The translations under genes and the position numbers were made by a program. From a virus (taxonomy: Duplodnaviria; Caudoviricetes): DNA of 46,745 nucleotides. This document shows positions 23,281 to 30,394 of this stretch, one piece after another. Location: the IMG/VR virus record IMGVR_UViG_3300031716_000017, positions 1 through 46,745 of that record; one strand, written 5' to 3'. The notes below the pieces were generated by a model that had not been told where the DNA came from, did not search any database, and saw nothing but the letters and a program-made list of their open reading frames with translations. Within the stretch, counting starts at the first letter, position 1; every line of letters starts with the position of its first letter.

Positions 23281-23511
23281 GTGCCACGTTACCAGGCCGA
23301 ACACGTCCCGCCGCACCTGGGGCCAGCCCTTCGGGCCGCTCGCCTTGGGGCCGGTAAGACCCTGGCGGAAAGCGCCCAGGCCGCGTTCGTGGACCTGACC
23401 ACGCTAGAGAACTGGGAGCAGGGGCGCACCGATCCCAGGTGCGGCCAGGTCTTGCGGCTGGCCCTGTTCTATGGCGTCCCTCCGCTGGACCTGTTCGGCT
23501 ATGTCGTTTGA
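23281..23511 (+). CDS. XRE-family HTH transcriptional regulator
   Basis: LRAARL...TLAE.A....V...TLENWEQGRTDP....V..LA.FYGV. Confidence 0.85.
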   Translation: MPRYQAEHVPPHLGPALRAARLGAGKTLAESAQAAFVDLTTLENWEQGRTDPRCGQVLRLALFYGVPPLDLFGYVV

Positions 23512-25948
23512 AATTCGGTTCAGCGTATTCGATCACGCGAAGGACGGGATCCCGAAACCCCGGACGATGACCTGGGACGAATTCGTCCAGGGTCTTGGTC
23601 CCGATCATCGGACCGACATCGAAGACAAGCGACGAGTCCCCGCCTTCTCCCCGGCGGAATTTCGACCCGGCCCCAGTCGAAAAGAGGAACATGTAACGCG
23701 GATCTGGTTCGGGGTCCTGGACCTGGACATGATCACGACCGTGCAACTGGCGGCCGTTTGCCAGCGTCTGGAACATTTGGACGCCGTTTTATATACGACC
23801 TGGGGTCATCCAAACGTCGCTAGCCGCGGATTGTGGAAGGTAAGAATTTGCGTTCGCTTCTCCCGGCCGGTCGAAGCCAGGGACTGGCCGCTGGTCTGGC
23901 CCGCCATGTCCGCGTTCTTTTGCGGGTTGAATGACCCCAACATGAACAGCGCGAACGAAATCTATTTCGGACCCAGTGTCCCGCCCGGAACTGATCTTCG
24001 TCTTTGCCATTTCATCGTCTTCCGGGGTGGGGCGCTGGACGTGGACCAGCTTCCCCAGGTCGCATTCGGCGAGAACCCGAAGGCCCCACGGGGCGGAACC
24101 GAAAAGATCACGCGGGAACGCCTGGAACGCCTGGCGCTCAGGTGGAAGCGATCACGGGATCCCTATCGCTCAGAAATGGGTGAGACCCTACACAAGGTCA
24201 CGAAGGGGGAAGCGTTCGCCGAACCGGGAAACCGCGATAATGTCCTGTTCCAGTTGTGCTCGGACCTGGCGAAAGCCATTCCCGACGGGATCCCCGAAAG
24301 CCTGGCCGAGCATTTCGCCCATTCGTTGCAACTGTGTGGGGACAACCTGGCCGGGGATATGGCCAAGGTCAAAGACAAGTTCGAACGCGCCCAGGAAAAG
24401 GCGGCGGCCGAAGTGTTCGCAGCTGAAATGGCCCAGGTCAATGAGCGGAAGCTGAGAATCCGCCAGGCATGGGCCCACATCGATCCGACCCGTGAAACCG
24501 CGTACACGGAAGACGAACTTTCTGCGATGGCCGAATCCTGCAAATGCACCAGGGAAGAACTAAAGAAAAGGTGGATCATCCAACGGGGGACCCTGTTCTA
24601 CGTTCTGGGTCCCGAAGGTGTTTACAGCCAGCCCTATGGGCGGGACGACGTTTGGAACGCGGTCCTTCGTGACCTTGCGCCGGCCGATTCCGCCGGGGTA
24701 GAACTGTGGACCGAATCCGCGAACGGGGAACCCGCCCGAAAGTCTATGCCCAGTCTCATGGGCGAATATGGGTCCGTTGCGACCAGTTACGTTCTGGACC
24801 TTCGTGCCCAGATCGCGTCTTATGACTCGGTTCAAAAACTGTTCATTGAAGCGCCGTGTCCGCTTCGGCCATTGCCCCCGACCTGGGACCGTGATGTGGC
24901 CATGTGGCTTCAAATTCTCACGGGGCCGCACCATGACAACGTTCTTAACTGGTTGGCCCAGGTCACCAATCTGGATTTGACTTGTGCGGCACTGATGCTG
25001 ATCGGCAAAAAGGACACGGGGAAATCGCTTCTGGCCATGGGCCTTTCCCGGCTGTGGACCACGGAAGGGCCCACGTCCCTGGAATCGGTCCTGAAAGAGT
25101 TTAACGATCGCCTGGCCCGGTGTCCCCTGACATTCGCCGACGAAACCTTGCCCAAGGACTTCCGCGGCTACGGCCGAACGTCCGAGATCCGGGAGTGTCT
25201 TTCCGCCAGGACGCGACCCTTTAACAAGAAATACGCCCCGGAAGCCAGTATCTTGGGCGCGATTCGCCTGGTTGTGGCCGCGAATAACGAGAACATCCTG
25301 TCAATTAACGAACACCTGTCCGCCTTCGATATCGAGGCGATCGGAGATCGGTTCTACCGCGTCCCCGTCGATCCCCGAGCGGCCGAATGGTTGCAAATGT
25401 GCGATACGGCCAGCTTCATTAACCAGGACCGAATCGCAAAACACGTCCTGTGGCTTCGGGACAATTACCCCGCCAGACGGGACGGCCGGTTCCTGATCAA
25501 GTCCACGGAAAAGGAATTCGTCCGTGGTCTAACGACGCAATCGGGAATTCGGTCCAGTGTCTGTCAGTGGTTCGTTGGGTATCTCAAGTCACCCAACCGA
25601 ATCGATGCTCGGGGGGACTTCGGGGTCATGGTCAAAAAGGGGAAGCTGTATGTAACCCCGAACGTCGTTTATGAAGGATGGGACGCCTATATCAAGGGGG
25701 AACCAGCCCCGAACCTGGGGAAGCTCGCCCAGGCGATCACGGAACTGTCGACACGGCGAACCCGGGTCACGTCCCCAAAGTTCCGCGGGCAGGACGCGCC
25801 GCACTACCGGGAGATCGACACCGACCACCTGTACGCCTGGTCAGACCGTACAGAGTACGCCAGCCGGGAGGACATCGATCAGGCGCTGGCCGTCGACACG
25901 GAATCCAGGATCGTCCGGACCATGACCGTTCCCAGCCGTCTGAATTAG
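23501..25948 (+). CDS. Primase(-polymerase)/helicase fusion (AEP-type N-terminus, NrS-1/DUF5906-like SF3 helicase)
   Basis: VLDLD, YTTWGH, RFSRPV; Walker A GKKDTGKS, Walker B FADE, AAN; start MSFEIRF preferred. Confidence 0.8.
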   Translation: MSFEIRFSVFDHAKDGIPKPRTMTWDEFVQGLGPDHRTDIEDKRRVPAFSPAEFRPGPSRKEEHVTRIWFGVLDLDMITTVQLAAVCQRLEHLDAVLYTTWGHPNVASRGLWKVRICVRFSRPVEARDWPLVWPAMSAFFCGLNDPNMNSANEIYFGPSVPPGTDLRLCHFIVFRGGALDVDQLPQVAFGENPKAPRGGTEKITRERLERLALRWKRSRDPYRSEMGETLHKVTKGEAFAEPGNRDNVLFQLCSDLAKAIPDGIPESLAEHFAHSLQLCGDNLAGDMAKVKDKFERAQEKAAAEVFAAEMAQVNERKLRIRQAWAHIDPTRETAYTEDELSAMAESCKCTREELKKRWIIQRGTLFYVLGPEGVYSQPYGRDDVWNAVLRDLAPADSAGVELWTESANGEPARKSMPSLMGEYGSVATSYVLDLRAQIASYDSVQKLFIEAPCPLRPLPPTWDRDVAMWLQILTGPHHDNVLNWLAQVTNLDLTCAALMLIGKKDTGKSLLAMGLSRLWTTEGPTSLESVLKEFNDRLARCPLTFADETLPKDFRGYGRTSEIRECLSARTRPFNKKYAPEASILGAIRLVVAANNENILSINEHLSAFDIEAIGDRFYRVPVDPRAAEWLQMCDTASFINQDRIAKHVLWLRDNYPARRDGRFLIKSTEKEFVRGLTTQSGIRSSVCQWFVGYLKSPNRIDARGDFGVMVKKGKLYVTPNVVYEGWDAYIKGEPAPNLGKLAQAITELSTRRTRVTSPKFRGQDAPHYREIDTDHLYAWSDRTEYASREDIDQALAVDTESRIVRTMTVPSRLN

Positions 25949-26019
25949 TCCACGCTGAAAACACTGTAAACGCGGGAACTATGTCTGGATCCGCACCTAA
26001 CGCGCCGCGTTAAAGACCA

Positions 26020-26073
26020 ACCGGAAAAAATCGGAAAAATAGTGTTGACTGGTTGCCCAGGGCGGTCTAGGTT
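26020..26073 (+). promoter_or_regulatory. Sigma70-type promoter with A-tract UP element driving the tRNA/ncRNA locus
   Basis: GGAAAAAATCGGAAAAAT upstream of TTGACT(26045-50)-17-TAGGTT(26068-73). Confidence 0.7.
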
Positions 26074-26079
26074 CAGGAT

Positions 26080-26280
26080 CGTCCCGACACGTTCTCAGGT
26101 GGACGGGCGGCGGGATGCAGGGTCAAGGTCCGGACAGGTTCGGGCCGAAGGTGGGTCCACGGACGCGGTAACCAAGAATAGGAGGCGGAAGGCTCGCGCG
26201 AGTCCGTCGCACGGGTTCATGTCAGAGAAGAACGCCAAACCGAAACGACGTCCCCGGGCCGGCTGACAGCCCGGGGTCCT
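26080..26280 (+). ncRNA. Candidate structured ncRNA, unit 1
   Basis: No credible ORF; stems 26081-26116, 26127-26146, 26159-26207, 26252-26276. Confidence 0.45.
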
Positions 26281-26355
26281 GTCCCGTTCGTCTAGTGGTT
26301 AGGACGGTGGCCTTTCACGCCGCCAACAGGGGTTCGATTCCCCTACGGGACGCCA
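26281..26355 (+). tRNA. trnE: tRNA-Glu(TTC)
   Basis: Full cloverleaf: GTCCCGT/ACGGGAC acceptor, loop CTTTCAC, GGTTCGATTCC T-arm, encoded CCA. Confidence 0.95.
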
Positions 26356-26548
26356 AATTCCAAGGTCCGGAGTTATGAACCGGGCTTCACAGGGTCCTGG
26401 CCAGGAACCCAGCCGGGCGGGGATTGGCGCCCCCAGAAACCCACACCCAAGAAAGTAAACAGGGATATGAGGGAAATCCGCGCGGCGTCAAAGGGCGACG
26501 CATAGCACGGTCCGCCGGGGCCATCGGTGGCGGTCCCTGGCGGATTAT
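26356..26548 (+). ncRNA. Candidate structured ncRNA, unit 2
   Basis: No credible ORF; stems incl. AGGTCCGG/CCGGGCTT and TCCGCCGGGG(26511-20)/CCCTGGCGGA(26535-44). Confidence 0.45.
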
Positions 26549-26622
26549 GGGCGCGTTAGTTTAATGGGCAAAACAGCCGGCCGTTAGCCGAATGTTTCAG
26601 GTTCGAACCCTGGACGCGCCCC
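26549..26622 (+). tRNA. Degenerate tRNA-like element (nominal anticodon GTT, Asn)
   Basis: Good acceptor (GGGCGCGT/ACGCGCCC), D-arm GTTT/AAAC, T-arm GGTTCGAACCC; anticodon stem has 2 mismatches, C at position 33, no CCA. Confidence 0.7.
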
Positions 26623-26733
26623 TGGTCCCCTTCGGAAGGGAGACTGAACAAGAGCGGTTATGACTGGGGCCGAAAAAGGGCTGCGTTCACGGGTCCTTCG
26701 GTGAAATGAATCCTCCTCCCCGGTTACTTCCGA

Positions 26734-27033
26734 ATGGGACCGTTTTCTATGACCCCCGGTAAGATTCGCTATTCCCTTGTCCCGGTTGGCGCCCTTCGGG
26801 CCGTGGTCCAGGTTTTGACCCTGGGCGCGGCGAAGCATGGGGACCGCGGGTACGAATCAGGGGATCTTCGGGACGAATACCTGGACGCACTGTTCCGACA
26901 CCTAGAAGACTACCGGGCCGGGGAATGGCTGGATAATGAGTCCACCTGGCCGCATCTTGCCCACGTAGGGGCGAACGCCCTGATTTTGCTGGCCCTGGAA
27001 ATGCGAGTCAGGACCAAGGATCCGAGACTATGA
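26734..27033 (+). CDS. dATP/dGTP diphosphohydrolase-domain protein (DUF5664-like); true start uncertain
   Basis: GKIRYSLVP..AL..V..VL..GA.K, DALFRHL, ES..PHLAHV..NAL.L. Confidence 0.8.
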   Translation: MGPFSMTPGKIRYSLVPVGALRAVVQVLTLGAAKHGDRGYESGDLRDEYLDALFRHLEDYRAGEWLDNESTWPHLAHVGANALILLALEMRVRTKDPRL

Positions 27034-29316: not shown

Positions 29317-29564
29317 TCCCGGCCTGGGCCACGTTCGGGCCGTGTTTCTGGGTCCCCCTCGCAAAGTTCTTGCGGAAACCTTTGATCGTTCAATACTGGG
29401 AATGGCCCATGTTCCGGATCGTGGGTGATTCGGGGCTGGTCCCTGGCGAACATTCGACGGTGCGCCGGCCCTGGGATCACAATGTGAACAGCCGCGTTGC
29501 CACCGCTCAAAGGTGGTACGGCTGGGGCTTCGAAGACGTCCCGAAGCGTCGGACCTGGACGTGA
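29313..29564 (+). CDS. Hypothetical Trp-rich protein
   Basis: GTGA overlaps at both ends. Confidence 0.55.
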   Translation: MIPAWATFGPCFWVPLAKFLRKPLIVQYWEWPMFRIVGDSGLVPGEHSTVRRPWDHNVNSRVATAQRWYGWGFEDVPKRRTWT

Positions 29565-29626
29565 TCCGGGGCGCGTTTCTCCTGGCGTTCGTCCTGTCTC
29601 TGTTCCTGATTAGGCGCTGGACATGA
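29561..29626 (+). CDS. 21-aa single-pass membrane micropeptide (not in ORF track)
   Basis: MIRGAFLLAFVLSLFLIRRWT; GTGA overlap upstream, ATGA overlap downstream. Confidence 0.6.
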   Translation: MIRGAFLLAFVLSLFLIRRWT

Positions 29627-29817
29627 CCGGAACCTGCTCTAGGTGCGGCGCGATGCCCGATGATCAATGCCGGGGCGGCTGTCCCAGGACCCAGGCCCAG
29701 TTCCGCGAATGGGCCCTGGGCGTACACGAGGGGAAGACGGGTCAGCCGCTCCGGAAAGAGGATCCGTTCTATATCGTGGGCTGGATTCGGGGCCGGTTAC
29801 AGTGGAAGCAACGATGA
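29623..29817 (+). CDS. Small Cys-containing protein
   Basis: CSRC...CRGGC; coupled at both ends. Confidence 0.6.
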   Translation: MTGTCSRCGAMPDDQCRGGCPRTQAQFREWALGVHEGKTGQPLRKEDPFYIVGWIRGRLQWKQR

Positions 29818-30224
29818 CACCTTTTCAGCGCCTGATCTTGGGGATGGCCGCCGGGCTGGGACCGCTTCCGAGCATTTCGCCGCCCAGGTTCGAACTTCTT
29901 CCGCCGGACCCGATCCCGGAACCGTTGGACTGGAAACTGTCGGATTTCAACATCCGGATTCCGTCGGCCGTGGTGGTCCAGCCCTTCCGGGAACCGGACT
30001 TCTGTGAATGTGGGCCGCCCTGTCCGGGGACCGGAAATCCTAATCGACGGTGCGCCCTTTGCGGGTTGAAATTCCCGCCTTGTCTTCCTGACTGTTCTGA
30101 ACTGGGCGGCCATCTTCGCGCCTGTCCGAACAATAACCGTCCACCGAAGTTCAGGCCACGACCCTGGGCCGAGCGAATCGCCCGACGGAAGCGGCACTGG
30201 GGCAAGGTCAAGGCCAGGCGATGA
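29814..30224 (+). CDS. Pro/Cys-rich protein with Arg-rich C-terminal tail
   Basis: ATGA-coupled start MTPFQRL; ends RPWAERIARRKRHWGKVKARR. Confidence 0.6.
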   Translation: MTPFQRLILGMAAGLGPLPSISPPRFELLPPDPIPEPLDWKLSDFNIRIPSAVVVQPFREPDFCECGPPCPGTGNPNRRCALCGLKFPPCLPDCSELGGHLRACPNNNRPPKFRPRPWAERIARRKRHWGKVKARR

Positions 30225-30394
30225 ACACTTACGACCTGTCACAGGTTCAGGTGCGTTTCGGTGGTCACGAATTGACCTGGCGATCGTGGGACTGGTCCGC
30301 CAAGCGAAAACGAAACAGGCCGAAGCGTCGGCCCCTGGCCGAACGCCTGGAACGCCGCCGGAAGAACTGGGAAAGGGTCAAGGCCAGGCGATGA
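30221..30394 (+). CDS. 57-aa basic protein (not in ORF track)
   Basis: MNTYDLSQVQVRFGGHEL...RPLAERLERRRKNWERVKARR; ATGA overlaps both ends. Confidence 0.65.
   Translation: MNTYDLSQVQVRFGGHELTWRSWDWSAKRKRNRPKRRPLAERLERRRKNWERVKARR

Follow-up and report, generated by a model that had tools for sequence, protein, structure and literature searches.

The interval between the primase-like and diphosphohydrolase genes of this small myovirus is best read, with a confidence that we would put at about even, as a tRNA operon in which a predicted promoter precedes a codon-compensating tRNA-Glu(UUC) and a second, t-element-like tRNA element that appears to have lost its anticodon and may act as a signal for RNase P and RNase Z, its cutting being predicted. 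The point of interest is that this anticodon-dead tRNA element recurs within a phage clade; the feature is real, and it is not the large ornate RNA that a first-pass annotation of the same DNA had offered as one possibility.

The window, that is, the whole stretch of DNA analysed (46,745 nucleotides), corresponds to one complete virus record of 46.7 kb, whose genes include those for tail sheath, baseplate, terminase, portal, capsid and family A polymerase, and the runs that contain its sequence are soil metagenomes. The locus occurs without differences in two contigs (runs X1 and X2, possibly the window's source), and a third run is identical over 26545–26784. A myxobacterial host is only a guess, because the distant primase relatives are spread over assemblies titled Polyangiaceae, Myxococcaceae and delta proteobacterium, while the nearest of them is on a 44.7-kb contig from an assembly titled Cellvibrionaceae. 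Within the genome, the 800 nt from 25949 to 26748 form the second-largest gap without a coding-like open reading frame, flanked by the primase-like and dATP/dGTP diphosphohydrolase genes. The features of the locus are these:

23501–25948, plus strand: primase/helicase-like gene, upstream, the synteny anchor (weak match to PHROG 3228; DUF5906 below cut-off; 74 homologues)
26021–26041, plus strand: two phased A-tracts, UP-element-like, from the sequence (relatives have A-tracts upstream of the −35)
26045–26073, plus strand: predicted sigma-70-type promoter, TTGACT-17-TAGGTT
26080–26280, plus strand: unit 1, the 201-nt non-coding leader of tRNA-Glu (collinear with the 203-nt leader of relative L197)
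26124–26159, plus strand: first copy of motif M1, a hairpin AGGTCCGG..YCGGGC followed by GGGT (recurs in unit 2 and L197)
26252–26276, plus strand: GC stem, −18.6 kcal/mol by hairpin energy, ending 4 nt before tRNA-Glu
26281–26355, plus strand: tRNA-Glu(UUC), canonical, CCA encoded (ARAGORN; Rfam 60.7 bits; four stems fully paired; orthologue in L197)
26356–26548, plus strand: unit 2, a 193-nt non-coding spacer with the second copy of M1 at 26361–26395 (fold z 0.05)
26510–26545, plus strand: GC stem, −24.4 kcal/mol, pairing probability 0.8–1.0, ending 3–4 nt before the tRNA-like element
26549–26622, plus strand: tRNA-like element (8-bp acceptor with G-1:C73, D and T arms intact, anticodon stem 3/5, C33, CCA not encoded)
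26623–26748, plus strand: trailer with hairpins, without a terminator-like site on this strand
26749–27033, plus strand: downstream gene, dATP/dGTP diphosphohydrolase N-terminal domain (PF18909, E 1e-24; position shared by L123 and L197)

Under a codon model built from the genome itself, all five open reading frames tested within 25949–26748 have negative scores, which bears out the earlier statement that no credible one is present and speaks against small proteins encoded in the units. Elsewhere in the genome, the largest gap of this kind (29317–30285, 969 nt) carries a direct repeat of 21 nt (30206 and 30376), which suggests duplicated small genes.

The promoter was read from the sequence, as TTGACT at 26045–26050, a 17-nt spacer, TAGGTT at 26068–26073 and the two A-tracts, and a consensus promoter scanner does not include it among its calls. 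It is nonetheless present as originally described, and the equivalent position behind the primase is occupied in all five syntenic relatives by an A-tract and a promoter-like site of the T(T/G/A)GNC..TA..T type (sites chosen by eye, with spacers of 16–18 nt). Transcription would start near 26080. A terminator scan of the trailer gave no terminator-like site on the plus strand before the next gene, and transcription may read through from the trailer into the diphosphohydrolase gene.

Those relatives come from a search with a 40-sequence primase alignment and three further alignments, which returned 116 locus matches (40, 35, 5, 2, 30 and 4, many of them redundant), only five of which are close syntenic phages. 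Their primases are 73% (L197), 59% (L121), 57% (L201, C-terminal part), 58% (L123) and 52% (L122) identical to that of the window. A locus search with a single protein query found no locus, and tblastn of the primase against 50,697 annotated phage records gave no match. Behind the primase, all five carry a promoter-like site, a non-coding leader of 123–324 nt that is rich in hairpins, a GC-rich stem and a tRNA unit, the content of which varies: tRNA-Glu only in L197, tRNAs for Leu, Gln and Ile in L122, and a single tRNA-like element each in L123, L121 and L201.

Several details of these units deserve mention in their own right. The tRNA-Ile of L122 (L122:10480–10552) has the anticodon AAU according to both ARAGORN and Rfam, an anticodon that is unusual for tRNA-Ile in bacteria and phages. 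In L197, the CCA with which tRNA-Glu ends shares bases with an in-frame ATG that shortly precedes the diphosphohydrolase match (L197:1140–1160), and the 3′ strand of the acceptor (GGGAG) occupies the position expected of a ribosome-binding site, so that excision of the tRNA and translation could exclude each other. Very short open reading frames (2–15 codons) lie shortly before several tRNA units (26219–26266 and in unit 2 of the window; L122:10250–10275; L197:1005–1025), some of those in L122 and L197 behind strong GGAGG sites.

Both tRNA calls of the first-pass annotation are upheld, although the two elements differ in kind. The tRNA-Glu at 26281 is confirmed by ARAGORN and Rfam, and has the cloverleaf, 7-nt anticodon loop, U33 and CCA of a canonical tRNA. 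The tRNA-like element proposed at 26549 forms a cloverleaf over 26550–26622, or from 26549 if G-1 is counted, and ARAGORN calls the former interval tRNA-Asn. A uridine at position 33 is the rule for tRNA anticodon loops. Here position 33 is a C, only three of five anticodon-stem pairs form and CCA is not encoded, so that the element lacks the 5-bp anticodon stem and 7-nt loop with U33 of a canonical tRNA, while its other stems are complete (acceptor 8/8 with G-1:C73 included, D 4/4, T 5/5). The same pattern extends to the relatives: in four of the six phages the tRNA unit has a non-canonical anticodon loop, of 7 (window, C33), 6 (L123), 4 (L121) or 5 nt (L201), none of them with U33, and in all four elements the T arm is paired at 5/5 positions and the T-loop is intact. 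G-1:C73 acceptor ends are found in the window and L123 and are absent from L121 and L201, and a clean encoded CCA is found in none of the four. When the four elements are compared, 58 of 67 cells are paired and 8 of 17 pairs show two-sided changes, a result as high in none of 500 shuffles; misalignment in the 5′ half of the L121 row makes this an undercount, and related sequences can beat such a shuffle control. The paired arms could have been inherited from working tRNAs that recently lost the anticodon.

Bacterial RNase P contacts the D and T loops and the acceptor stem, binds with an affinity that is raised by a leader of 2–5 nt, and cuts tRNA-like t-elements and mascRNA from longer transcripts (PMC4919922, cited for these points). 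In four of the six phages, the tRNA unit keeps the arms that RNase P reads in a form for which decoding is not plausible. In structure the elements agree with t-elements and mascRNA, which keep the acceptor, D and T arms and have lost decoding, a loss that in the phage elements is likely from the anticodon arm. The Rfam tRNA model does not find the L121 and L201 elements in their records, where they fall below threshold, and a model built from the four elements and run over 60 sources (793 kb) returned the four seeds, seven ordinary tRNAs and no further element. A literature search, mostly outside subscription papers, turned up no description of tRNA elements with a dead anticodon that persist throughout a phage clade; because two of the four fall short of the Rfam threshold for tRNA and so escape standard scans, elements of this kind may often go unnoticed.

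The comparison among relatives bears on two other accounts of the element. One could suppose ordinary turnover, in which a hotspot downstream of a strong promoter gains and loses tRNA cassettes; the second element would then be a pseudogene in decay, and the units would be neutral GC-rich spacers. The differing tRNA content of the relatives (Glu; Leu, Gln and Ile; tRNA-like only) fits this, as do units that lack a folding signal and an 11-mer repeat with P near 0.05. We nevertheless consider it decidedly improbable: the damage in four divergent elements is concentrated in the anticodon arm, with T arms paired at 5/5 and T-loops intact, and in L123, L121 and L201 the defective element is the sole tRNA-like unit, yet promoter and stem persist.

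A different idea makes the tRNA-like element the end product: as a mimic that is uncleavable or does not decode, it would titrate an anticodon nuclease, a synthetase or a tRNA-sensing defence of the host. A G-1:C73 pair is the identity element of bacterial tRNA-His, and its presence in the window and L123 could make a histidine acceptor. In favour of a mimic, elbow and acceptor are intact and the anticodon loop is altered in four phages, and phage tRNAs with anticodon-loop changes have been proposed to resist host nucleases (PMC10264068). However, L121 and L201 are without G-1:C73, a clean CCA is encoded in none of the four, the locus is without a known partner gene, and the published cases are decoding tRNAs with point changes rather than shortened loops. 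We regard this explanation as quite unlikely.

The operon reading also draws on what lies in front of the tRNA units. Between the GC stem and the cloverleaf lie 4 nt at tRNA-Glu and 3 nt at the tRNA-like element (4 nt without a terminal G-U pair), and the gap of “exactly 4 nt” claimed earlier is typical rather than fixed; over the phage cases it is 3–7 nt by the hairpin measure and 0–4 nt by simple folding. The best hairpin ending 3–8 nt upstream has a median energy of −16.9 kcal/mol in nine phage cases, compared with −10.4 kcal/mol at 35 bacterial tRNAs (p 0.0008; taken from 30 loci of two assemblies, out of 101 tRNA matches) and −6.9 kcal/mol at 120 random window positions, with the proviso that the phage cases are not independent and that the pattern was noticed before the test. 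Stems of −9 kcal/mol or lower precede 18 of the 35 bacterial controls; GC-rich bacteria, too, often have a stem in front of their tRNAs, and this is a point against the operon reading.

According to the mechanism that we favour, a single transcript from about 26080, under the predicted promoter, would carry both tRNA-Glu(UUC) and the tRNA-like element. The terminal GC stem would insulate each cloverleaf and leave a short single-stranded leader for RNase P binding. The tRNA-like element would be kept for its shape, which likely tells host RNase P and 3′-trimming nucleases where to cut, and its cutting, like that of a plant-mitochondrial t-element or mascRNA, would part the leader from the mRNA for nucleotide and DNA metabolism that lies downstream. 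Cuts at both cloverleaves would yield tRNA-Glu, a non-decoding tRNA-like piece, two stem-ended fragments and an mRNA with a new 5′ end, and the released units would have stem-protected 3′ ends. The earlier proposal that the units are released by tRNA processing is still a prediction, one that has gained support from the layout, which persists in all five relatives even though four-fold sites are close to saturated already between the window and the nearest of them, and from the presence of arms of the kind that RNase P reads in four of six phages. Against the operon reading, the tRNA-like element is absent from two of the six phages (L197 and L122).

Codon usage gives the canonical tRNAs a plausible role. 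Glutamate in the window is encoded by GAA 349 times and by GAG 62 times (349/411, 85% GAA; for comparison, 242/987 GAA in genome G001), and GAG/CTC stands at 0.33 of expectation in the window and at 0.32 in L196 and L197 taken together, on both strands; both carry tRNA-Glu(UUC). In L122 it is CAG/CTG that is depleted, to 0.47 of expectation, with CAA at 68% and CTA more frequent than CTG, and this phage carries tRNA-Gln(UUG) and tRNA-Leu(UAG). The canonical tRNAs match the codons that word avoidance throughout the genome forces on these phages, and tRNA-Glu(UUC) likely supplies the GAA codons that the phage prefers. Such compensation is not obligatory, since L121 has 78% GAA and a GAG depletion like that of the window with no tRNA-Glu in its complete record. 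The depletion of words may in turn reflect avoidance of host DNA-recognition sites or of a DNA-targeting system. Other words were seen to be scarce as well: ATGGA/TCCAT occurs once in the 46.7-kb window and TGGAG/CTCCA 11 times, and ATGGA/TCCAT is absent from L196, L197, L121, L201 and L125. The more distant L129 and L130 have another avoidance pattern (CAA about 90% of Gln codons, almost no CTG), and no matching tRNA was seen in their fetched loci. With the canonical tRNAs of each phage linked to codons that avoidance of DNA words imposes, the locus offers a clean small-genome case of codon compensation.

The two units of about 200 nt had been described as hairpin-rich structured RNAs, a description that the folding analysis does not sustain: unit 1, unit 2 and the whole region (626 nt) all fold no better than shuffles (z = 0.62, 0.05 and 0.42). 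The repeat that was said to open a hairpin in both units is indeed present twice (CAAGGTCCGGA..CGGGC), but as evidence it carries little significance, given that an 11-mer common to two genome segments of about 200 nt has P = 0.047 and that 64 such repeats no more than 500 nt apart exist genome-wide. Similarly, the long-range pairs GGTTCAT/ATGAACC and GTGGGT/ACCCAC are complementary words at or near chance level (between units 1 and 2, 4 complementary 7-mers observed against 3.3 ± 2.3, and 18 6-mers against 11.8 ± 4.3), and both helices have a pairing probability of 0.00 in a predicted ensemble that also misfolds the tRNA-Glu acceptor and is hence a poor judge. As a separate observation, GGACAGG (26132–26138, within the M1 hairpin) perfectly complements CCTGTCC (26278–26284) across the 5′ end of tRNA-Glu and is paired with it in the predicted fold of the whole region; inspection of L197 by eye gave no clear equivalent.

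These results weigh heavily on the proposal of one GOLLD/ROOL-like ornate RNA of about 620 nt with embedded tRNAs. In its favour are the length, the promoter and the nearby tRNAs, and the linkers of GOLLD sometimes hold tRNAs (PMC12286853). The locus shares with GOLLD, ROOL and OLE a position near phage tRNA genes, but neither a covariance-model match nor covariation-backed structure was found, the latter with structure conservation indices of 0.26–0.32 from two or three sequences per alignment and thus at low power. Rfam 15 matched only tRNA at the gathering threshold and only tRNA, mascRNA (E 0.33, on tRNA-Glu) and mir-607 at E ≤ 10; GOLLD, ROOL and OLE were without a match at E ≤ 10 here, and none was found in nine related loci. 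With a z of 0.42 over the whole region, long-range pairing no better than chance, and relatives that lack one or both units and whose leaders run from 120 to 330 nt with one to three tRNA units in changing order, the proposal is largely refuted and we hold it to be extremely improbable.

Other candidate families were also considered. A CsrB/RsmZ-type sponge was rejected because GGA motifs are without excess (6 and 6 observed in the two units, 6.0 and 5.2 expected). The sequence CAGGTCCGG, which we take to resemble an SRP motif, is missing its partner strand and has no Rfam match. No integrase was found in the scanned open reading frames, which speaks against an attP relic, and a bacterial Y RNA (YrlA) was discarded in the light of no Rfam match and no Ro60-type Pfam family in the 51 open reading frames scanned, the rest being structural genes. 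A descriptor of our own for the HDV-like fold of theta ribozymes, used without a positive control, gave no match behind nine tRNA units and no start in 26020–26705.

A further possibility is that the units are small RNAs in their own right, that is, stable functional molecules for which the tRNA units partly provide defined ends, as for T4 RNA C and RNA D. Each unit has a strong terminal stem followed by a tail of 3–4 nt, and T4 RNA C and RNA D are expressed RNAs without an assigned role (PMC9697503). Unit 1 and the L197 leader, 201 and 203 nt long, align end to end with 91 of 196 positions identical (46%), a score reached by 0 of 500 shuffles (z 3.1, the best of 15 pairs). As the four-fold sites of the primase are near saturation between the window and L197, its closest relative (29/82 identical), some constraint on unit 1 is likely. 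The length and alignability of this pair, together with some well-folding leaders among the relatives, exceed what a pure spacer would need, which counts against the operon reading. M1, the hairpin followed by GGGT, occurs in both units and in L197, although the local match between unit 1 and L197 is by itself not significant (72/1000); a further motif, CCGAAACGACG.CCC, is common to unit 1 and L123 (3/1000 shuffles, in one of 55 pairs) and is found loosely in L122 (80/1000). The leaders of L121 and L201, the only clear homology among the 55 leader pairs compared (z 9.3), have two hairpins in common with compensated changes, and of eight segments from the relatives, five have folds more stable than those of their shuffles (z −2.2 to −3.5) and three do not.

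Against these points, neither unit of the window shows a folding signal, leader length varies from 123 to 324 nt, and four alignments of two or three sequences each gave, at low power, structure conservation indices of 0.26–0.35 and alifold z values between +0.6 and −1.5, including no common fold for unit 1 and the L197 leader (0.26, z +0.6). With six phages, this is a failure to detect a conserved fold of the units and not proof of its absence. M1 matches elsewhere lie away from tRNAs: none of 61 in other viral contigs is near one, and of the 119 found with a looser pattern only three are; we judge these matches to be chance. Nor are units 1 and 2 detectably homologous, since the score of their global alignment is reached by 43 of 500 shuffles with a structure conservation index of 0.26, and the notion of “two related small RNAs” is weak, a single hairpin motif being all that they have in common. 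Unit 2 has no significant match to any relative's leader. A scan with the L121/L201 motif found one unrelated locus, within an open reading frame; searches with the units among 80 related loci, by blastn and nhmmer, found nothing convincing beyond the units themselves; 14 of 401 genomes of the phylum of G001 matched, over the full length only in G001 itself; and the best 20 of 141 blastn matches among the 50,697 annotated phage records cover tRNA-Glu only. Overall we think it unlikely that the units are functional small RNAs; under the operon reading they would be weakly constrained leader and spacer sequences rather than a conserved folded RNA family.

A bolder version combines several of these elements, and we offer it as speculative and rather unlikely. 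The anticodon-dead mimics might serve as RNase P punctuation throughout a clade of small soil myoviruses, excising stem-protected RNAs of 120–200 nt from an early transcript, a new and fast-evolving class marked by the M1 hairpin, and the mimic with G-1:C73 may in addition be a histidine-accepting decoy.

It is informative to set the locus beside systems that are already known. T4 RNA C and RNA D sit within the T4 tRNA cluster and are released by tRNA processing. They are small non-coding RNAs of unknown function (PMC9697503), as the putative RNAs from the units here would be; the units are longer and poorly conserved. GOLLD and ROOL are likewise phage-borne and near tRNA genes, and GOLLD may embed tRNAs (PMC12286853), whereas here there is no covariance-model match or conserved multi-helix fold, and units of 120–330 nt come and go among relatives. 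Theta ribozymes are structured RNAs directly 3′ of phage tRNAs (PMC10879173); in this locus the conserved stem is 5′ of the tRNA. Phage tRNA clusters, discussed in terms of codon compensation and defence evasion (PMC10264068), resemble the locus in its canonical tRNA-Glu(UUC), strong promoter and match to a preferred codon, but these genomes of 42–47 kb have only one to three tRNA units, and the skew in their codons tracks a depletion of GAG/CTC or CAG/CTG on both strands, not a low GC content. The plant mitochondrial t-elements and mascRNA/menRNA are non-decoding tRNA-like structures that lie within longer transcripts and have arms read by RNase P and RNase Z (PMC4919922; PMC1920247). Such processing signals have been described in plant mitochondria and in mammalian lncRNAs; the element considered here differs in belonging to a bacteriophage and in that its D arm is complete and a remnant of the anticodon arm is left, and its cutting is predicted.
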